Origin: a virus
Taxonomy: Duplodnaviria; Heunggongvirae; Uroviricota; Caudoviricetes
Length of the DNA stretch: 64,000 nt
Direction: 5' to 3' (one strand)
Virus record (IMG/VR): IMGVR_UViG_2700989507_000006
Part shown: positions 51,730-60,921 of the stretch, in pieces
Layout of the letters: each line of letters opens with the position of its first letter
Position numbering within the stretch: position 1 is the stretch's first letter
Made by a program: the position numbers and the translations under genes
Notes under the pieces: model-generated
Seen by the model: only the letters and a program-made list of their open reading frames with translations
Told to the model about the DNA's origin: nothing
The model's database searches: none

Positions 51730-53205
51730 TTACACCTGTGCGACGTTATACCATGTGCCATTGATGTATTTTTGTATTGGCCTGAATACTGCGGGGTCAT
51801 CACCATCGACTTCACCGACAATACCAAGCCCGGTAATTACGTGCCCTGCTTTCTCATACATCACCCCTTTCTGCATAGTCTGGACAACACGTGTGCCAAG
51901 TCTGATATCTCTCACATAGCGGGAATCAAAGTTACCGTAATCCGAGGGATTAACACGCCCCGTAATATTTATGGTCTTATTACTTTGAATGCTTCCGGAA
52001 ACAAAGCGCATAACATGGACGTTATTAGCATAAACATCCAGATTACCATCGCCATTTTGTTTAAATCCGGTGTCGTTATCACCAAGAACAATAGAGTTCC
52101 CACCCAACGCGTTATTCGTGCCAAGTGCCAGCCCGCCATCAATCCTGGCACCATTACCAACAGACACAACTCCTGTTCTTAAGTTGATGCCGAATGGCCT
52201 TAATGGCCCAATATCTCCATTTTCACCCTCATTTTCTCGTGTAGGGATGATATACAGGTTTTCTTCAGAACGGCGAAAAATAGCACCAAAAGATGAATTA
52301 AATATCCTCAGTGCATTGACTGTAGATATTTTTACTTCACTGCTGAAAAGGGCTTTAACAAGAACATACAGAGCATCCCATTTAAGATTCATCAGATCTT
52401 TTGTTGTGGTGCTCTGACGACTTCTCCATTTGAAATATTCATTGCCGTTGTCACCTGTTTCAAACCACATGTATGAATCAGTGTCACCATCGGCATCATT
52501 TTTAAATCCAATCTTCGCCCAGTCAGTATTTCGAATCCAGGCAAGGATTGAGTCGTTTTCAAAAGTAAGTCCGCCGGACAAGATATCGCCTGAACGCTGA
52601 ACGGCATTATTTGCTTTATTAATGAATTCCTGTAGATTTAAATCTTCCGCCGTTAGCTCAATGTTTTTAGAACCATCAAACGAGACACCGTTAATAGTAC
52701 GTGCTGTCTGCAATTTGGTCGCTGTAGCCGCATTACCAGAGGTGTCCTGATTCCCTTTGGTATTAACGCCGGGAACGGAATCTTTTGACGTATAGATCTG
52801 TGCCCATTCGGACCATGCCGCAGCAGTGCTATCTCTTTTGGATCGAATGAAAGCTGGTGCATGAGCGCCATTTGTGCCACTCCAGCCAATGAGCAACTCG
52901 CCTTCACCAGTGGATGCAGCTCCCTTCAGGTGAAGTACATTCCCGTAAGTCGTCGGATAACCATTGTTGTATGCCTCATACATCTGCAATCCAGTAGCAG
53001 CACCTTGCGTTGTACCGGTAAGCGCAGTAACGCGTCCTCTAGACGTAATTGTTGGTATCGAAATGTTCGTAGAACCATCGAATCTGACGCCATTAATGTT
53101 TATGGCTGTTTTTAATTTCGTCGCGGTGTCGGCGTTCCCTGTCAGCGCCCCGGTGATCCCGCCGTTGAAAGTCTGGCGTGCACTCCATGTGTTAGCCGTG
53201 CTCAA
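51730..53205 (-). CDS. Sv': alternative tail-fibre variable segment (promoterless until inversion)
   Basis: 491-aa ORF whose first ~200 aa are identical/near-identical to residues ~494-700 of S; no independent start context. Confidence 0.7.
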   Translation of the reverse strand: MSTANTWSARQTFNGGITGALTGNADTATKLKTAININGVRFDGSTNISIPTITSRGRVTALTGTTQGAATGLQMYEAYNNGYPTTYGNVLHLKGAASTGEGELLIGWSGTNGAHAPAFIRSKRDSTAAAWSEWAQIYTSKDSVPGVNTKGNQDTSGNAATATKLQTARTINGVSFDGSKNIELTAEDLNLQEFINKANNAVQRSGDILSGGLTFENDSILAWIRNTDWAKIGFKNDADGDTDSYMWFETGDNGNEYFKWRSRQSTTTKDLMNLKWDALYVLVKALFSSEVKISTVNALRIFNSSFGAIFRRSEENLYIIPTRENEGENGDIGPLRPFGINLRTGVVSVGNGARIDGGLALGTNNALGGNSIVLGDNDTGFKQNGDGNLDVYANNVHVMRFVSGSIQSNKTINITGRVNPSDYGNFDSRYVRDIRLGTRVVQTMQKGVMYEKAGHVITGLGIVGEVDGDDPAVFRPIQKYINGTWYNVAQV

Positions 53206-53215
53206 CAGGGGGATC

Positions 53216-53241
53216 TTTTCACCGCTGGTACCGAGTTCTCT
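53216..53241. other. invertase crossover site (cix-type, right)
   Basis: ttctcttaaacc-aa-ggtttaggattg; lies between Sv' and cin. Confidence 0.6.
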
Positions 53242-53252
53242 TAAACCAAGGT

Positions 53253-53813
53253 TTAGGATTGAAATGACGACGCCGGAAACTTCTTATAAAGCGTGGAAAC
53301 AGCCACATCATAGATGATTGCAACCTGCTTACGGGGGATGCCATTCTCCAGCAATCGCCGCATTTGCTGCCATGTTTCTTCTTGGTATTTAGGCCGACGC
53401 CCACCTATACGACCTTCTGCGCGAGCTGCATCAAGTCCAGCGCGTGTACGTTCAACGATAAGCTCACGTTCCATTTCTGCCAGCGCCCCCATTACGTGAA
53501 AGAAAAAGCGCCCCATTGGTGTACTGGTGTCGATAGAGTCAGTGAGACTCCGGAAATTAATTCCTCTGTCACGCAGCTCTTCCACCAGCACAACCAAGTG
53601 ACGCATGCTGCGCCCAAGACGATCTAACTTCCATACGACCAGGGTGTCACCTCTGGAAAGCATACGCAAAACCTTTTTTAGCCCAGGGCGTTCAGTCTTT
53701 TTGCCGCTCGCCTTATCCTCAAAAATTAGCTCACATCCTGCGCTTTCAAGGGCATTTCGTTGCAAAGCAGTGTTTTGTTCATTTGTTGATACGCGTACAT
53801 AGCCGATCAGCAT
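53253..53813 (-). CDS. cin: serine recombinase, DNA invertase (Hin/Gin/Cin family)
   Basis: 186 aa; MLIGYVRVSTNEQ catalytic serine motif, C-terminal HTH; adjacent to cix sites. Confidence 0.9.
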   Translation of the reverse strand: MLIGYVRVSTNEQNTALQRNALESAGCELIFEDKASGKKTERPGLKKVLRMLSRGDTLVVWKLDRLGRSMRHLVVLVEELRDRGINFRSLTDSIDTSTPMGRFFFHVMGALAEMERELIVERTRAGLDAARAEGRIGGRRPKYQEETWQQMRRLLENGIPRKQVAIIYDVAVSTLYKKFPASSFQS

Positions 53814-53934
53814 GATTTTTACTCTAATGCGTTGTTCTTATGAGTCTGCGAATTTTAAAGAACAAAGCGTTATGCACAGAAATAACAATCTGAATAGGTT
53901 CCTGCTTGATTTTTGTTAGATCCGGGAGGAGCTT

Positions 53935-54219
53935 ATGCAGATTTTGATTTTTTTAATGTCCATTATTAGTGGAACCTATTTATTTCTTACTGGAGTTAGG
54001 CGTGGAGCTTATAAGCCATGTTTTTTACATTGGCTTGAAGCATGGCTGCTTGCCATAAAAGGTGGTTTTGTTGGTTTTTGTCTTGCAGAAGTTCAGTGGG
54101 GAAACTCATTTTTGAATGTGGTTGCTTTTTTGATATGTAGTTGGAATAGCCATTTTGTATTAAGAATAACCAAAATATGGGTTTTTCACTTGATTTACGA
54201 ATGTATTGGCAAATTATGA
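53935..54219 (+). CDS. small AT-rich membrane protein (three predicted TM helices)
   Basis: 94 aa; strong RBS GGGAGGAG 4 nt before ATG; F/L/W/C-rich; GC content visibly below flanking genes. Confidence 0.4.
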   Translation: MQILIFLMSIISGTYLFLTGVRRGAYKPCFLHWLEAWLLAIKGGFVGFCLAEVQWGNSFLNVVAFLICSWNSHFVLRITKIWVFHLIYECIGKL

Positions 54220-54230
54220 ACAACCAGATG

Positions 54231-54251
54231 AGAAGTTACTTTGCATACCAT
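54231..54251 (+). promoter_or_regulatory. late-promoter-like motif (agaagttactttgca + TACCAT)
   Basis: AAGTTACT box as at 47193; ~30 nt upstream of holin-like gene. Confidence 0.35.
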
Positions 54252-54279
54252 TACCTCCTGACAACGTAGGAGGGAACTT

Positions 54280-54609
54280 GTGCTTGACACACAGGAATTA
54301 GCTCCAGTTGCTATTGCGCTCCTGCTTTCAGTAATTGGTGGGATAGGCACGTTCCTGATGGATGTCCGAGACGGTCGCCAGTCTGGCAATTTGTTGGGAT
54401 TGGTTACGGAGATCTTTGTTGCAGTGACAGCTGGCGCGGTGGCGTACCTATTGGGGCAACACGAGGGCTGGGAGTTATCAATTACGTACTTAATGGTAAC
54501 GATAGCCAGCAATAACGGTCATGAGGTGATTTCAGGGATGAAACGAGTGAATATCGATAGCATTCTGAATGTTCTTACAAGTTTGGTGAAAAAGGGAGGT
54601 GGGAAATGA
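54280..54609 (+). CDS. lydA: holin-like membrane protein
   Basis: 109 aa, GTG start after AGGAGG; two to three hydrophobic helices and charged C-terminus. Confidence 0.55.
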   Translation: MLDTQELAPVAIALLLSVIGGIGTFLMDVRDGRQSGNLLGLVTEIFVAVTAGAVAYLLGQHEGWELSITYLMVTIASNNGHEVISGMKRVNIDSILNVLTSLVKKGGGK

Positions 54610-55049
54610 TTGGCTGGGGTGTATGCGTTCTTGCGTTAGCCTTAGCCGATCGCTATTTGCTAAAACGCAAGGACATCACGCATTTAGAACTTGGTGATGT
54701 GGAAATTAAACCGGGTTTCATCCGGGTGCCGTTCAAGTACCGGTCTAAATTCCCGTTTTTGCGCGGCGCAACGGTCAGATATTGGATCCGCGATGTTCAG
54801 AAGCCGACGACAGTGATTGAAGGTGAACAACGTTGTCTGACGTCGGCTGAACAGGGCGAAAACAGTGAATGGTTGTACATACCCACTGAATATATGGGTA
54901 AAGGAGAGCGACTGTGGCATTTCAACGTCATGGTTACGCATGGCGACTCGTTCATTAACCCGTTGTATCGGATTTTCCCTGTTACTCAGCAAATCCGCAG
55001 AAGTTACGTAATAAATCTCGCACAGGATGTGTCAGATGACGAAAAATAA
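54606..55049 (+). CDS. lydB: antiholin-like protein
   Basis: 147-aa ORF overlapping lydA stop by 4 nt; N-terminal hydrophobic segment. Confidence 0.5.
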   Translation: MIGWGVCVLALALADRYLLKRKDITHLELGDVEIKPGFIRVPFKYRSKFPFLRGATVRYWIRDVQKPTTVIEGEQRCLTSAEQGENSEWLYIPTEYMGKGERLWHFNVMVTHGDSFINPLYRIFPVTQQIRRSYVINLAQDVSDDEK

Positions 55050-55638
55050 GTATGCAACGGTCGATTTTGACCAGGTTAATGAAAAGGGGCTGAAATCCCT
55101 TATCGCGGCGATCAATAAAACCGGTGTTACGGTAATTGAGGTTGACTCCAGCAACCGCGCAACAACGAAAGATGGCGTTAAAGTTAAAACCGCAAAGCTG
55201 GTTCTTAACGACGGACAAATTCTTGCCATACAGGTAAACGATACTGGCGATATATCGTCTGTGAAACTGAATGGAAAAGCTATTCCTAACGCTCAGTCGC
55301 CGGATATCAAGACGCTTGGTACCGTCATGGGACAGGCGGCCCGCAAAAACTCCGCAAAATTCCAGAAATCACTGATCGCCAAAGCGAAGCGTGTTGCCAA
55401 TCCGGTAGACAAGAAACCGGCAGTTAAATCCAACTTTCAGCGCCTGCAAGAAGCAAAACAGCGGAATGCTCAGGTGGTTGCCGCTTATAAGTCCGCGCAG
55501 AATTCGGTGTCTTTCAATCAACAGCAGATCACTGATTTGCGGGCGAAGCTGGATAAGGAGACGGGCCGACTCAATAACGAAAAGGCACGGAATGGCGAAC
55601 TCAAACGTCGTCTTAAGCAACTGAAAGCAGGAAATTAA
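55036..55638 (+). CDS. hdf: coiled-coil protein sharing a motif with DarA (homologue of DarA fragment)
   Basis: ATG 55036 (track ORF from 55027); ARKNSAKFQK matches EKNSAKFQR in the downstream 639-aa protein. Confidence 0.5.
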   Translation: MTKNKYATVDFDQVNEKGLKSLIAAINKTGVTVIEVDSSNRATTKDGVKVKTAKLVLNDGQILAIQVNDTGDISSVKLNGKAIPNAQSPDIKTLGTVMGQAARKNSAKFQKSLIAKAKRVANPVDKKPAVKSNFQRLQEAKQRNAQVVAAYKSAQNSVSFNQQQITDLRAKLDKETGRLNNEKARNGELKRRLKQLKAGN

Positions 55639-55639
55639 C

Positions 55640-57559
55640 ATGGAACAGTTCAATATCAATAAAGGGGTGACGATCAAGCCTGGGCTTGACGTGCTTCCCC
55701 CGCCAGTGACTGATGATGAATATCGCGCATTAATGGCCGGTGAGGACCGCTATCTGATGACGGAATCCAACACCCTGGAGGAAATCGAGGCTACGTTCTT
55801 CTATGACACGCCGATCCACTGGTGTGCTACGGATTTATTGGAGGCGATTAGTTCTACTCGTTTGCAGTTACACCGGACCATGCAGGCATTTGTCCGGGCA
55901 TTGAACCAGAAGCTGAATGGTACCGGAATCTCTGCGGGGAGTGATAAAACGGGGGATGTGGCCCAGAGCGGCGCGCGCGCGATCGGCGGCGCTGAAATTG
56001 GCCGGGCACGTAACGTTAACGGGCTGCCAGTCCTGCCAGCCATTATTCCGCTCAGTGATGGTCAGACTATCAGTATTCTGTTTCATAGCCCGACAGCGGA
56101 AAACCGGATCACCAATAGCGATACGCTGGTTGCTTTCCAGTTCTTACTGAATAAAAAAGACGTTACTCACACCGTTGCTCCGATGAGTGGACGTGATATG
56201 ACGCTGGCGCAGGTCACCATGAAACTTGCCAACCTTGCAGAGAAAAACTCGGCAAAATTCCAGCGTGCGCAGAAGAAGAAAAAAGCCCTTGTTGATGAAA
56301 TAACCCAACTACAGGCTGACAGTGACCAGAAAGAGGATGCCATGAGCGACCTCGCGGATCAGGTGGCAGCGGTAGAAGGGCAGAAGGCAGATCTGGAGCA
56401 GAAAATTAACGCTGTTGCATCGGAAGCGGATTCTCTTTATGAAGAGAATGAGCGTTTGCAGACGGAGATTGATCAGCTCAATCGCACTGGTGGGCGCGAT
56501 ACCATTGCTCCAGCGGGGATGACTGGTGGGCACTCTCGCGCGCTGACGGATCGCCTTGCCAGTATCAAAAATCGTATGCATATGGACGGGGAAGTGACGC
56601 TCAGTAATGGTGCATCAATGAAGCAATTCATTGGGGGCGGCGAAGGGTATATCCAGTTAACCGATCCGGATGGCAGCGTATACATGATCAAGGCTAAATC
56701 CATACAGGGTGTGGACATGGCAGATGCGATCGGCAAGCTGTTTAAAGCCTATAAAGCGGGTAATGTATCGGAATACCTGGTCCAACCAGAAGAACATAAA
56801 CCGGAAAACGTCGAACCTGAACCAGCGGAGGATACCGGTAGCTCTTCGCCTGAACCAGAAGTCTCTGTAGGTGCATATCGATATGCCCTGCAAATGCGTC
56901 CGGCGGCCCCTGGCGCAATACCTGAAGGTAACAAAGCAATTCTGCCGCGCCCTGATGAAGGTGACCCGTATTATGAATATGCACGCTACGGCATTGCTAC
57001 TTACGATACCCCGCTTTCTGATCAGCAAATGAGTGAGTACGACCTGAAGTTATTGCCTCGCGAGGATTCTTTCGACTTCCTGGCGAAGACACTTACTAAT
57101 GGTCCGTTTGGCAAATATGCACAAAAAGCTCTGGAGCTGGCCACCAGCTCACCAGACGAGTTCCGCGTAATGCTGAAAACTCAGTTTCAAAAAACTTTCC
57201 CCAATATTGCGTTTCCTGGGGGCGCTGGCACCGAGAAAATGGTGCAGAGCATGATCAATGCATTGCAGGCCGAAGTCGGTGAGATTACTCAGCCAGAACC
57301 GGCCCCGGCACAGCCTGATGAAACGGTTAGCGAAGCAGATGCAGAGGCTAATAAAGCCATTGAATATCTCAATAACGTGATGGATATACAAAGCACTGAC
57401 ATGGCGGAGATCCGTAACGCCCGGGGCAATGTCCGGGAAGCGATTGCAGCCCTTCAGGCTGCCGGACGTTTTGAGGAAAACGAAGAGCTGGTTAACGGCG
57501 CAGCTCGCCACCTGGCTGATCTGCTGGTAGCAATCCAGAAAGCGGGGGTAGCGGCATGA
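55640..57559 (+). CDS. darA: head-packaged antirestriction protein DarA-type
   Basis: 639-aa ORF in operon after holin/antiholin and hdf; coiled-coil middle, Pro/Glu-rich linker; size matches P1 DarA as remembered. Confidence 0.6.
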   Translation: MEQFNINKGVTIKPGLDVLPPPVTDDEYRALMAGEDRYLMTESNTLEEIEATFFYDTPIHWCATDLLEAISSTRLQLHRTMQAFVRALNQKLNGTGISAGSDKTGDVAQSGARAIGGAEIGRARNVNGLPVLPAIIPLSDGQTISILFHSPTAENRITNSDTLVAFQFLLNKKDVTHTVAPMSGRDMTLAQVTMKLANLAEKNSAKFQRAQKKKKALVDEITQLQADSDQKEDAMSDLADQVAAVEGQKADLEQKINAVASEADSLYEENERLQTEIDQLNRTGGRDTIAPAGMTGGHSRALTDRLASIKNRMHMDGEVTLSNGASMKQFIGGGEGYIQLTDPDGSVYMIKAKSIQGVDMADAIGKLFKAYKAGNVSEYLVQPEEHKPENVEPEPAEDTGSSSPEPEVSVGAYRYALQMRPAAPGAIPEGNKAILPRPDEGDPYYEYARYGIATYDTPLSDQQMSEYDLKLLPREDSFDFLAKTLTNGPFGKYAQKALELATSSPDEFRVMLKTQFQKTFPNIAFPGGAGTEKMVQSMINALQAEVGEITQPEPAPAQPDETVSEADAEANKAIEYLNNVMDIQSTDMAEIRNARGNVREAIAALQAAGRFEENEELVNGAARHLADLLVAIQKAGVAA

Positions 57560-57921
57560 CACTATCAGCTATTGAGTTAATGGACCTCAGCGACAAGTTG
57601 GATTCTCTGATGTCCAAAGCTGCTACCGCGAGTGGCATGGAGTTGTTGGATATCAGCGATGAAATTGACCAGATCATGCAACAGATGGGGTACGGCGCGT
57701 CCGGCGGCGGTAGTGGTGAGGAAAAACAACCTTCGGTACATGATGGTGTGCCAAAACTGGTTGCTGATTTCCTGGCTGATAAATTCGTCGATCAGAGCAC
57801 CGATGCATTTATCGGTACGTTGCAGGACTTGAGTCAATATGTTGGCACATACATCGATCTGGACCAGGTTAAACAACACACGGCGGCATGGATAGCCGCC
57901 AACATTAAAGAGGCAGCATAA
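57556..57921 (+). CDS. small acidic protein in dar operon
   Basis: 121-aa ORF, 4-nt overlap with upstream gene, GGGSG linker. Confidence 0.45.
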   Translation: MTLSAIELMDLSDKLDSLMSKAATASGMELLDISDEIDQIMQQMGYGASGGGSGEEKQPSVHDGVPKLVADFLADKFVDQSTDAFIGTLQDLSQYVGTYIDLDQVKQHTAAWIAANIKEAA

Positions 57922-57933
57922 GGCGTAACAGGG

Positions 57934-60921
57934 ATGAGCTTAAGCGATCAGGTGGTGATGGCCACCAGCATAGAAACGCTGATCGAGCTGCTAAAAAACC
58001 TGCCCGATTACGGGCGGGTTTCGTATGTGGTGACAGCGAAGGGAGACGAGGTAAAAACAGCGTTTGATATCGTCGATGCCTCAACTCTTTTGGTATCCAA
58101 TACTCTGGACGGGAAAATTAATCCGGACTATCCCCAGGAACTTCAGCCGCGCGACCGGACCCGCGCATCCAGCCTTCTTCAGGTTAACCAGATATCCAAG
58201 GATTTGCGGCCTGCTCAGCTTACCGATTCCGGTCTATCCAGCCATGGCGCGCCGATAATTGGTGAGGACAATGCCGTTGAGTCAGGTAATGGACGGACCA
58301 TGGGGATCATTAAAGCCTATCAGGACGGCAATGCGGATCGGTATCGGGAGTACCTGATTGAACATGCGAGCGAATTCGGCATACGTCCTGAAAAGGTTGA
58401 ATCAATGACGGCTCCGGTACTGGTGCGCCGCCGGTTAACTAAGGTTGACCGCGTTCAGTTTGCCAAAGACTCAAATATTTCTGATCTTCAGGAAATGGCA
58501 GCCAGTGAAAAGGCTTTTGTTGATGCCGACAGCATAACACCGGCGATGATGGCGCTGTTTAATCCGTCAGAAAGCGGAGATCTGCTTAGCCGCAGTAATG
58601 ACGCGTTTATTCGCGGATTCATGACGCAAGTTGGTGCCACACAGGCTGCTGGCCTTGTAACGGAAGATGGGCGACCAACGCGGCAACTTGTTGACCGTAT
58701 ACAAAACGCGATCTTTGCCAAGGCATATAAGGATGCGCGCCTGGTAAGGATGGTTGCAGAAGAACCTGATCCGGATATGCGTAATGTTCTGACGGCGCTT
58801 AATGCGGCGGCCAATGATTTTGTACAGATGCAGGCTTTATCAGGAGAAGCGCACAAGCAGGCTGTGACAACTATCGTTGATGGTATTGAAACAGCGGATA
58901 GCCTCGATAAAAAGGCGCTGGCGGCATTGAAAGATGCGGTAGACCTGGTAAGGCAATCGAAGGAGTCAGGCCAACATATTACCGATGTTATTGCTCAGGG
59001 GGATATGTTCAGCGAAACGGCCCCGGAAGTGAAAGCACTCGCGTTGTTTATCGTCGCGAATAACCGTAGCGCGAAGCGTATGGCCACCGCCTTTAAGTTG
59101 ATGGCGCAACGTATCAATGATGAGTTACAGCACCAGGGCCAGGCGCTCGGGGATATGTTTGGCGGCGGTGATGTGTCGTTACAGGATATCCTTCGCCAGG
59201 TGTCTCAGGAACTGGAAAACGAAGGCATGCAAGGGATATCCGGCGGTCTTTTCGAGTCCGTTTCCGGCGGTAGTTACAACGGCGTTGCTCCATATACCAG
59301 TTTGCTATTACATCGGGCATCCGGCACCAAAGACATTATTCATCTGATCAGGCTGCTTTCCCGTACAGATCCCCAGGATGAACAGCTTGTTCAAGTGCTT
59401 GCGCATTTTGTTCGAATGCCTGTTGCCGACGTGAAAAAATGGTGCCGATTATTCGGTATCAGCAATTCGTTACTTCGCGGCTTGTTAAATCACGCATCCT
59501 CCCTTGGGCGCGATGGCTTTGACGAGATAGCGCAGGCGATAAAAAACGGAGATATGCCACCAGCTATTGACTGGTTTTCCATTCGCCCAACCAGGGTGAA
59601 AGCATTCCTTAGCGCGGCGCAATCAGCATCACCATTGGCAGAAATGGTTCAGAGGTTATCGCTCATATTCACAGACCATACCGCGTTGGGTGATCTGACT
59701 CTGGACGAGATGAAGGAAGCCTCCATTCAGTGGGCCGATCAACAAAATGAGGTTAACTCAGACTTCTTGCCAGCATTCAGGAAGGCCGTTAGTAAAGCGG
59801 ATGATGCCCGTGGAATTCTGAAGGCATTTAAGGCATTGCAAAGTCGTGTTAATAAACATGTCGGTGATATCGATGGGGTAACGGCGGAAGGCCGGGATAT
59901 CCTTAAAGAGCACGGCATAACGCCAGAGTTTATTGATGAGATCAGGACTGATATGCAGCGTGAGGTCGTATCGTCCCTGCAAATCGTAGCCAGAGCGTTG
60001 GCGGATGCTAATCCGAAGAGTGCGGCCATTGTTAACCGTGTTATTGGTGATATTGAAGCATCGGAGGGCATGGGGGCGCTGAAACTCTTCCTTTCGCGAG
60101 CGTTTAATCCTAACGGCAATATTCTCCCCAGCATTATTGGTGAGGCTAAAAAGCATGTCAGTGAAGAAGAACTTGAGCTGCTTAACCAGCTACTCAATCG
60201 ATTTTCATATATCCCGCAGAAACGCTGGCAAATGAATCAGCGAAGTATGGATTCGGTCTACGAGAAAGTGTTATCTGCCATGAACAGTGCGATCGCCAAC
60301 TCATCTGTATCAGAAGAAAAAGCTCTTGAGTGGGCCGACTCTTTTATCACGGAAGAAGTGGAAGAAGCCCGCGCTGGACAGAATGGTGGAATAGACTTGC
60401 GCAAGGAACTTGCTGATATTTATCGCCTGACCGGCGGGAAAATATCAACCTTATCAAGGGTAATTCACCACAAGGGTAGGGCGTATGCAAATCTTAATGG
60501 TGTTGTTGCTGTCGATTTGCACGATGAAAATGCAAATGCACTGTGGCACGAGCTGGGTCATCATCTTGAGTACAGTAACCCGGGGTTGTTAGAGAAAGCC
60601 AGGTCATTCCTGAAGGCCAATGTTGAAGGGGATAAGCCATCTTTCGTTAATATCGGTGGGCGTGGCAAGCCTGAATGGTGCTTCAGATCTCGATTGAGTG
60701 ATATTTATATGGCGAAGGTATACCCGCCAGCCTCAGTAAGTAACACCGGGAAAATTCGGCAGAAATCACCGACTATTTCCAAAACGTCAGCAACGGAAGT
60801 ATTCTCTATGGCTCTTCAGTTGTATCATGACAAAGAGGCCGCTGCCGCATCACTGATGAATGGTGACGGATTGCTGGAACTGTTATTAGGTGTGGCAAAG
60901 GAGCTAAATAATGCAGATTAA
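57934..60921 (+). CDS. large dar-operon protein with C-terminal HExxH zinc-metallopeptidase-like motif
   Basis: 995 aa; LWHELGHHLEYSNPG at 60547-60564 region; otherwise helical with no other recognised motif. Confidence 0.5.
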   Translation: MSLSDQVVMATSIETLIELLKNLPDYGRVSYVVTAKGDEVKTAFDIVDASTLLVSNTLDGKINPDYPQELQPRDRTRASSLLQVNQISKDLRPAQLTDSGLSSHGAPIIGEDNAVESGNGRTMGIIKAYQDGNADRYREYLIEHASEFGIRPEKVESMTAPVLVRRRLTKVDRVQFAKDSNISDLQEMAASEKAFVDADSITPAMMALFNPSESGDLLSRSNDAFIRGFMTQVGATQAAGLVTEDGRPTRQLVDRIQNAIFAKAYKDARLVRMVAEEPDPDMRNVLTALNAAANDFVQMQALSGEAHKQAVTTIVDGIETADSLDKKALAALKDAVDLVRQSKESGQHITDVIAQGDMFSETAPEVKALALFIVANNRSAKRMATAFKLMAQRINDELQHQGQALGDMFGGGDVSLQDILRQVSQELENEGMQGISGGLFESVSGGSYNGVAPYTSLLLHRASGTKDIIHLIRLLSRTDPQDEQLVQVLAHFVRMPVADVKKWCRLFGISNSLLRGLLNHASSLGRDGFDEIAQAIKNGDMPPAIDWFSIRPTRVKAFLSAAQSASPLAEMVQRLSLIFTDHTALGDLTLDEMKEASIQWADQQNEVNSDFLPAFRKAVSKADDARGILKAFKALQSRVNKHVGDIDGVTAEGRDILKEHGITPEFIDEIRTDMQREVVSSLQIVARALADANPKSAAIVNRVIGDIEASEGMGALKLFLSRAFNPNGNILPSIIGEAKKHVSEEELELLNQLLNRFSYIPQKRWQMNQRSMDSVYEKVLSAMNSAIANSSVSEEKALEWADSFITEEVEEARAGQNGGIDLRKELADIYRLTGGKISTLSRVIHHKGRAYANLNGVVAVDLHDENANALWHELGHHLEYSNPGLLEKARSFLKANVEGDKPSFVNIGGRGKPEWCFRSRLSDIYMAKVYPPASVSNTGKIRQKSPTISKTSATEVFSMALQLYHDKEAAAASLMNGDGLLELLLGVAKELNNAD

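Follow-up and report, generated by a model that had tools for sequence, protein, structure and literature searches.

P7-type lydC of a P1/P7-like phage-plasmid: a divergent allele encoding a probable accessory holin-family protein, with a predicted RNA hairpin over its start

The lydC gene of phage P1 has been characterised by Bednarek et al. 2022 (PMC9025707), who found that cloned P1 lydC, like lydA, was lethal or arrested growth. In the same study, a frameshift in P1 lydC led to late lysis in both Escherichia coli and Enterobacter cloacae. No plaques were formed by a mutant defective in both lydA and lydD, whose sole remaining holin is LydC, and when lyz had been replaced by lambda R, the loss of lydC from P1 slightly accelerated lysis of E. 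coli. The authors concluded that P1 LydC is an accessory canonical holin, possibly with a role in timing. They treated P1 lydC as a monocistronic operon under a putative early promoter, reported two predicted membrane spans for both LydC and LydA and a separate operon for the endolysin gene lyz in P1 and P7, and noted that the lysis proteins of P1 and P7 are identical or nearly so, LydC excepted (PMC9025707). A genome-wide CRISPR interference screen found P1 lydC to be non-essential (PMC10695390). Here we describe the lydC gene at 53935..54219 of a 64,000-nucleotide stretch of viral DNA (IMG/VR record IMGVR_UViG_2700989507_000006, hereafter the window), which carries the form known from P7 and most likely encodes an accessory holin-family lysis protein of a P1/P7-like phage-plasmid.

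Identity and family membership of the P7-type LydC

The gene and its Shine-Dalgarno (SD) sequence lie at:
53935..54219, plus strand: lydC, P7-type allele, 94 codons and a stop, paralog of the LydA holin
53924..53931, plus strand: SD of lydC, GGGAGGAG, read directly from the sequence

We used window positions 53700-54700 as a megablast query and obtained full-length matches to phage RCS47 (99.8% DNA identity) and P7 (99.7%), in which the open reading frame (ORF) is annotated as 'putative lysis determinant LydC' and as "lysis determinant C; putative holin" (AF503408), respectively. The encoded protein is 98.9% identical to P7 LydC (AAQ07503.1) and to RCS47 LydC, with residue 61 (N in the window, D in P7) as the sole difference from P7; E. 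coli plasmid NZ_CP012497.1 encodes a protein of the same sequence (100% identity), labelled hypothetical. P7 and RCS47 thus carry the same gene, on cassette DNA 99.7-99.8% identical and with the same neighbours, and the 'putative holin' label in their records was given on homology only. Judged by its sequence, the ORF is the already annotated lydC of P1/P7-type phage-plasmids in a divergent P7-type allele; the P7 and P1 GenBank records (AF503408, AF234172) already use this name, and characterisation of the P1 allele followed in 2022.

A first-pass annotation, made from the sequence of the window, had described a 94-codon ORF with a strong ribosome-binding site (RBS), lower in GC than its flanks, rich in F, W and C, and wedged between an invertase gene and the lysis/dar operon. 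The results confirmed each of these points. An open frame over 93 codons was kept in just 0.07% of shuffles of the ORF's own bases, which makes a chance open frame improbable, and the two other forward frames contain 8 and 6 stops. The GGAGG of the SD ends 5 nt before the ATG, and the SD core is common to all three P7-type haplotypes described below (GGGAGGAG, GGGAGGAA or GGAAGGAG). The GC content of the ORF is 33.7%, with 27% at third codon positions (GC3), compared with a mean of 47.8% for the window and with 47-52% (GC3 47-53%) for cin, lydA, lydB, hdf and darA, which places lydC in the lowest 0.14% of 285-bp windows across the 64 kb. GC at second codon positions is close to that of the neighbouring genes; codon choice and first positions therefore account for the deviation, which is not due only to the content of hydrophobic residues. 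The 94 residues include 9 F, 5 W and 4 C, and the flanking genes are cin (53253..53813) and lydA (54280..54609).

P7-type LydC matched PHROG 1527 'holin' at 2e-35. BLASTP aligned it with P1 LydC (AAQ14002.1) at 30% identity over 73 aa, ungapped (E 5e-11), global identity was 25%, and tblastn of whole collections connected it to the P1-type family at E 9e-6 to 2e-5; identity to LydA was about 24%. Because membrane proteins can resemble each other through composition, we ran Smith-Waterman alignments against composition-preserving shuffles and obtained z-scores of 15.5 for P1 LydC and 8.4 for LydA. A hidden Markov model (HMM) built from six P1-type LydC alleles gave the P7-type protein 36.1 bits, and 500 shuffles reached at most 5.7 bits. 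Twelve columns are invariant among P7-type LydC, P1 LydC and LydA (M1, L7, S9, G13, F17, L18, V21, A40, G44, I67, S69 and N71), and they cluster in the first transmembrane segment (TM1; S9, G13, F17, L18, V21), in TM2 (A40, G44) and in an I-x-S-x-N segment. The shuffle-tested homology to P1 LydC and LydA indicates that P7-type LydC does belong to the LydA/LydC family by these sequence comparisons, although only as a very distant member.

A word-indexed search of 5.8 billion proteins returned only near-identical copies of P7-type LydC from P1-like contigs, and an exhaustive HMMER search of 1.84 billion representative proteins gave no relative beyond such copies; the one extra hit in the protein-source searches was a spurious repetitive protein. 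No relative was found among PDB sequences, and no family of the PADLOC defence models matched LydC at E <= 1.

P1 LydC resembles the P7-type protein in its position between cin and the late promoter LPdar, in length (93 vs 94 aa), in collinear ungapped similarity that takes in TM1, TM2 and the ICSxN motif, in being Cys-rich and encoded below backbone GC, and in a 5' region where an upstream arm is predicted to base-pair with the SD and the first codons. The two differ in the C-terminus, which is polar and amphipathic in P1 but hydrophobic in P7, and in the GC content of the gene (41% in P1, 34% in P7). LydA, the paralog encoded 60 nt downstream and likewise placed in PHROG 1527, differs from LydC in an N-terminal extension, a Lys-rich tail (KKGGGK), the absence of Cys, and expression from LPdar together with its antagonist LydB.

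Hydropathy analysis of P7-type LydC identified a strong segment at about residues 2-21 and borderline segments at about 30-52 and 58-76, with peaks of 2.1, 1.6 and 1.5 in a 17-residue window. An AlphaFold model, built on a shallow four-sequence alignment and used for helix positions only, placed helices at 2-22, 30-53, 57-70 and 75-92 with low confidence (predicted local distance difference test, pLDDT, 58.7). The first-pass annotation had spoken of a three-helix protein, which agrees with the one strong and two borderline segments but not with the fairly hydrophobic C-terminal helix and the four helices of the low-confidence model, which leaves it a reasonable but unproven description. For three spans in an N-out/C-in topology, the positive-inside rule would place the RRGAYKPC loop (22-29) and the C-terminus (3 K/R) in the cytoplasm. 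The last 18 residues, RITKIWVFHLIYECIGKL, contain 3 K/R, 1 E and 1 H (net charge about +2) and are not hydrophilic. LydC fits the holins in size and membrane helix (94 aa, at least one hydrophobic segment) and in context, directly upstream of lydA (holin) and lydB (antiholin).

Predicted RNA structure and promoter signals at the lydC start

The signals considered upstream of and at the lydC start are:
53887..53943, plus strand: long interrupted RNA hairpin, with left arm 53887-53912, loop 53913-53917 and right arm 53918-53943
53944..53955, plus strand: U-rich tract UUGAUUUUUUUA directly after the hairpin, codons 4-7, read from the sequence
53818..53834, plus strand: annotated C1 operator Op(lydC), weak and doubtful, from the P7 record annotation

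In the predicted hairpin, the lydC SD, the AUG and codons 2-3 pair with an upstream anti-SD arm (AAUCUG-A-AUAGGUUCCU... against ...AGGAGCUUAU-G-CAGAUU). Its minimum free energy is -26.4 kcal/mol (z -4.9 to -5.3), none of 200 shuffles folded as well, and compared with GC-matched 76-nt windows on both strands of the 64 kb it falls in the top 0.25%. The fold is kept in all three P7-type haplotypes, with z of -3.9 to -4.2 in the two variant ones. Four haplotype substitutions fall in the hairpin stretch and spare the 21 main stem pairs: two exchange the facing bases of a 1x1 internal loop (from G.G to A.A), a third lies in a 2-bp inner helix, and the fourth changes G.U to A-U. Together, the hairpin and the U-tract appear to resemble an intrinsic terminator; a simple terminator scan did not call them, and the U-run UUGAUUUUUUUA also simply encodes the hydrophobic residues I-L-I-F-L. 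Judging from the pairing, the hairpin probably restricts how much LydC is translated, and perhaps also how much lydC is transcribed; the P1 homolog of this protein is lethal when expressed.

The P1 leader folds analogously, with codons 2-4 (UGUGAUUUC) pairing with GAAAUCACA and the SD GGAAAU pairing with GUUUCC, at -17.2 kcal/mol and z -2.8 (about -2.5 to -2.9 in canonical P1 and close variants). The P7 hairpin is much stronger than that of P1 (z about -5 vs -2.8) and is followed by the U-tract, which the P1-type cassette lacks. P1-type sub-variants L003, L004 and L006 showed no analogous fold (z about 0), indicating that the hairpin is not universal to the lydC locus and that covariation support is mixed. 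A search for known RNA families across 50000-58000 found nothing relevant. In the lambda S holin gene, mRNA structure at the initiation region partitions two start codons, yielding holin and antiholin. Both lambda S and lydC would have a holin-family initiation region embedded in mRNA structure, but the single start of lydC seems to be occluded.

A further hairpin was observed at 54254-54273 on the plus strand, where the 7-bp stem CCUCCUG-N6-UAGGAGG pairs the lydA SD with an anti-SD at 54254-54260. Its 51-nt fold has -15.4 kcal/mol (z -2.6, 3 of 200 shuffles), and the sequence is identical in P1. Transcription from LPdar is expected to start at about 54258, inside the anti-SD arm, so late transcripts would have a free lydA SD and read-through transcripts from lydC would keep it closed; the simple terminator scan found no terminator between lydC and lydA. 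The predicted structures over the RBS of lydC, and possibly of lydA, suggest a possible way to tolerate a lethal membrane protein outside the late operon.

The first-pass annotation had assigned lydC its own extended -10-like element, TGtTAGAT, at 53914-53921. We rejected this private promoter. The motif is the apex of the hairpin, and the implied hexamer TAGATC agrees with TATAAT at 3 of 6 positions, without the final T. Transcription would start about 7 nt past TAGATC, inside the SD, so such a promoter and the strong RBS cannot serve the same mRNA. Moreover, a consensus scan of 53700-54400 found no sigma-70-like promoter.

Op(lydC) was also rejected as a C1 operator, being indistinguishable from chance and not conserved among the P7-type haplotypes. 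It is the best local site, with 6 mismatches in 17 positions to ATTGCTCTAATAAATTT, compared with 0-3 for ten other operators in the window; 22% of 151-nt stretches of the window hold a site as good, and its CTCTAAT core is altered in haplotype L012/L021. Overlapping Op(lydC), between cin and lydC, is an inverted repeat at 53825-53872, with 15-nt arms TAATGCGTTGTTCTT and AAGAACAAAGCGTTA that are 87% complementary and 18 nt apart. As RNA it is weakly better than shuffles (z -1.65 on the plus strand, -0.89 on the minus strand), and its sequence could serve as a palindromic protein-binding site in the control of cin or lydC. TGTGCA-15-TAAAAT, from 53878 to 53852, overlaps the same repeat and is the best promoter-like match on the minus strand for cin.

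The lydC cassette, its distribution and competing explanations

The cassette and the genes around it are:
53805..54228, no strand assigned: replaceable cassette of 424 bp, from alignment of window, P7 and P1 DNA
53253..53813, minus strand: cin DNA invertase, divergent neighbour of lydC, from the ORF list and P7/P1 annotation
54233..54251, plus strand: late promoter LPdar, -22 box AAGTTACTT and -10 TACCAT, P7/P1 annotation transferred by coordinates
54280..54609, plus strand: lydA, main holin and lydC paralog (Pfam PF16083 at 30.1 bits, PHROG 1527 at 4e-49)
54606..55049, plus strand: lydB, antagonist of LydA (antiholin; Pfam PF16084 LydB at 8e-104)
55027..55638, plus strand, in the operon of lydA: hdf/odaE, from P7/P1 gene order
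55640..57559, plus strand, in the operon of lydA: darA, from P7/P1 gene order

The gene order cixL, cin, lydC, LPdar, lydA, lydB, hdf/odaE, darA matches that of P7 and P1, and the LPdar sequence, identical in P1, marks the start of the conserved lydA-lydB-hdf-darA operon. The first-pass annotation had connected the gene with its recombinase neighbour; this adjacency is incidental, and lydC belongs functionally with the downstream lysis genes. Alignment of the window, P7 and P1 was near-identical up to 53804 and from 54229, and P1 differed throughout between these positions, an interval that contains the first codons and promoter region of cin and all of lydC. Likewise, megablast matched P1-type genomes only on both flanks of lydC, and matches to P1-type and lydC-less phages resumed at query position 530, equal to window 54229. 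The alignments indicate that the AT-rich cassette 53805-54228 is exchanged as a unit between lineages.

In the phage collection, P7-type lydC was present in P7 and RCS47 only, and in PLSDB it accounted for 20 of the 202 plasmids that gave a lydC-like match of any kind. The LPdar/lydA junction occurs in 466 records of complete E. coli genomes; 331 of these (about 71%) have the P1-type cassette, called when it was covered over at least 80% of its length (DNA identity 78-100%), 29 (6%) have the P7-type cassette, and about 106 (about 23%) have neither. About 77% of E. coli P1-like elements therefore carry some lydC at the cin-LPdar position. The first-pass annotation had held that conserved presence with a lysis function would speak against its proposal of a toxin, exclusion factor or holin-like modulator, and this is largely what we found, given the 77% and the lysis role shown for the P1 allele. 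All four inspected elements with neither cassette (loci L014-L017, E. coli plasmids NZ_AP018809.1, NZ_CP075059.1, NZ_CP148447.1 and NZ_CP136027.1) lacked cin and lydC, and tblastn found no lydC-like sequence there; this natural lack of lydC fits an accessory role.

A hypervariable locus with many allele classes was considered and rejected, as eleven fetched plasmid alleles formed just two classes. P1-type alleles have 38-43% GC and are mutually similar, and P7-type alleles have 34%. Thus, lydC exists in two deeply divergent forms with 25-30% protein identity, exchanged by the 424-bp cassette swap, and the published experiments cover the P1 form only. The P7-type class comprises three haplotypes, that of the window and P7, L012/L021, and L018-L020, and the lydC ORF is intact in all. 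Between haplotypes there are 2 substitutions in the 285 nt of the ORF compared with 6 in 121 nt of adjacent intergenic DNA. Haplotype L018-L020 (P0002) has an in-frame 9-nt deletion, equivalent to window 54064-54072, which removes F45-V46-G47 from the Gly-rich TM2 stretch GGFVGF and lies between short GGTTTT repeats. It also carries L16F and R23C, and it was seen on about 10 contigs, some of 39-93 kb.

Taken together, the homology and the context make it probable that P7-type LydC is an accessory holin-family lysis protein. It would be a small inner-membrane protein that accumulates in the cytoplasmic membrane and is lethal when over-produced. It would help the main holin LydA, together with the pinholin LydD and the signal-anchor-release (SAR) endolysin Lyz, to trigger lysis on schedule, and would be insufficient for lysis alone; the hairpin and U-tract would restrain its expression at the RNA level. 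We infer both the holin activity of the P7 allele and the regulatory role of the hairpin. Of the functions proposed by the first-pass annotation, a holin-like modulator is the one that held, through paralogy to LydA and a P1 counterpart that is lethal and modulates lysis timing, and exclusion did not, given the PADLOC result. As lydC is already known, what is new here is minor: the putative hairpin gate and the divergence of the alleles.

Several observations weigh against this assignment. We found no literature experiments on P7-type LydC. Its C-terminal 18 residues are hydrophobic (mean 1.16, compared with -0.46 in P1 LydC), unlike the usual polar, charged tail of holins. BLASTP of P7-type LydC against LydA gave no alignment, and there was no match to Pfam PF16083 (Phage_holin_3_3) even at E <= 10, where P1 LydC (30.4 bits) and LydA (30.1 bits) both score just above the gathering threshold of 28.4 bits. 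The PHROG 1527 match may be partly circular if that family includes P7 LydC, and the NCBI pipeline names the P7-type protein 'hypothetical protein' and the P1-type 'phage holin family protein'. In addition to the negative consensus scan, a relaxed promoter scan reached only 7-8 of 12 matches. Polymorphism within the P7 type amounts to 5 non-synonymous changes, 1 synonymous change and one in-frame deletion, too few to demonstrate purifying selection.

Four other explanations were considered. P7-type LydC may not be the equivalent of P1 LydC, and would instead be a distinct, fast-diverged or foreign four-helix protein, gated by the hairpin and setting its own lysis clock or host range; we consider this doubtful. 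In that case the hairpin would occlude the SD and AUG and might also terminate transcription, with release by a transcript starting in the left arm, by RNase III cleavage or by anti-termination. If so, about 6% of P1-like plasmids would have a different lysis clock or host range, and a parallel gate on lydA may exist, by which lydC read-through transcripts keep the main holin silent. It is also unlikely that P7-type LydC has diverged into a lysis-timing regulator, an antiholin-like membrane partner of LydA or LydD that forms no holes. The 25-30% identity to P1 LydC within an otherwise nearly identical backbone would suit such a regulator, as would the loss of the polar C-terminal tail with the gain of a hydrophobic fourth helix in the model, and S9, G13, F17, L18, V21, A40 and G44, shared with LydA, are kept as a hetero-oligomerising partner would need. 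The slightly accelerated lysis after lydC loss in P1 with lambda R for lyz (PMC9025707) points the same way; however, in otherwise wild-type P1 lysis comes later when lydC is mutated, which is the reverse of what an antiholin mutant would show, and cloned P1 lydC is lethal like a holin. Nor does P7-type LydC have a dual-start motif with added charge, as residues 2-7 before Met8 are uncharged.

Very unlikely, in our view, is a decaying or silenced lydC copy, in which the ORF persists and a locked RBS without a promoter prevents functional expression. The negative sigma-70 scan, an annotated C1 operator no better than chance, an SD and AUG within a -26 kcal/mol hairpin followed by a U-tract, mostly non-synonymous changes within the class, one haplotype without three TM2 residues and the non-essentiality of P1 lydC would all be expected of such a copy. 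However, no haplotype has lost the SD or the open frame, which the 9-nt deletion preserves, the ORF has fewer substitutions than the adjacent intergenic DNA (2 in 285 nt vs 6 in 121 nt), and a hairpin lying exactly over the SD and AUG, with an analogous fold in canonical P1, looks regulatory. We give still less credence to a horizontally acquired 'moron', that is, a small membrane toxin or superinfection-exclusion factor expressed apart from lysis. The strongly atypical GC and GC3, the discrete replaceable cassette, its location outside the late operon and upstream of LPdar, the restriction of its relatives to P1-like elements in the search of 1.84 billion representative proteins, and the missing cin and lydC in the four inspected elements agree with it. 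Against it stand the significant homology to LydA and LydC, a position shared with P1 lydC, for which a lysis phenotype has been demonstrated, and the negative PADLOC result; furthermore, the P1-type gene, at about 41% GC, likewise falls short of the backbone, so a low GC content characterises the locus and is not a mark of recent foreign insertion alone. An accessory holin-family protein remains our preferred explanation. Automated annotation, which names the P7-type protein 'hypothetical protein', overlooks the P7 form.

Cargo at the junction, chromosomal copies and C1 operators

In loci L014-L017, cargo replaced the whole cin-lydC module at the same junction, equivalent to window position about 54229. 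The genes abutting LPdar encoded a serine acetyltransferase, a DapH/GlmU-like acyltransferase with a lipopolysaccharide (LPS) N-acetylglucosaminyltransferase, or a TnpB/InsQ gene was present. The position directly upstream of LPdar resembles a boundary at which recombination recurs, or a hotspot for cargo.

In E. coli 06-00048 the P7-type cassette was found at 100% identity twice, on plasmid NZ_CP012497.1 and in the strain's chromosome record (NZ_CP015229.1, 1910001-1910466). Chromosomal places accounted for 10 of 470 with the P7-type/junction query, which suggests that chromosomal P7-type copies are integrated P1-like elements or assembly artefacts.

Across the window, ten matches to the C1-repressor operator consensus ATTGCTCTAATAAATTT with 0-3 mismatches were found between 1102 and 63757, including 16926-16942, 1102-1118 and 20448-20464. 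Only 0.3 were expected by chance, indicating that the window is a P1-family, immunity-controlled genome.

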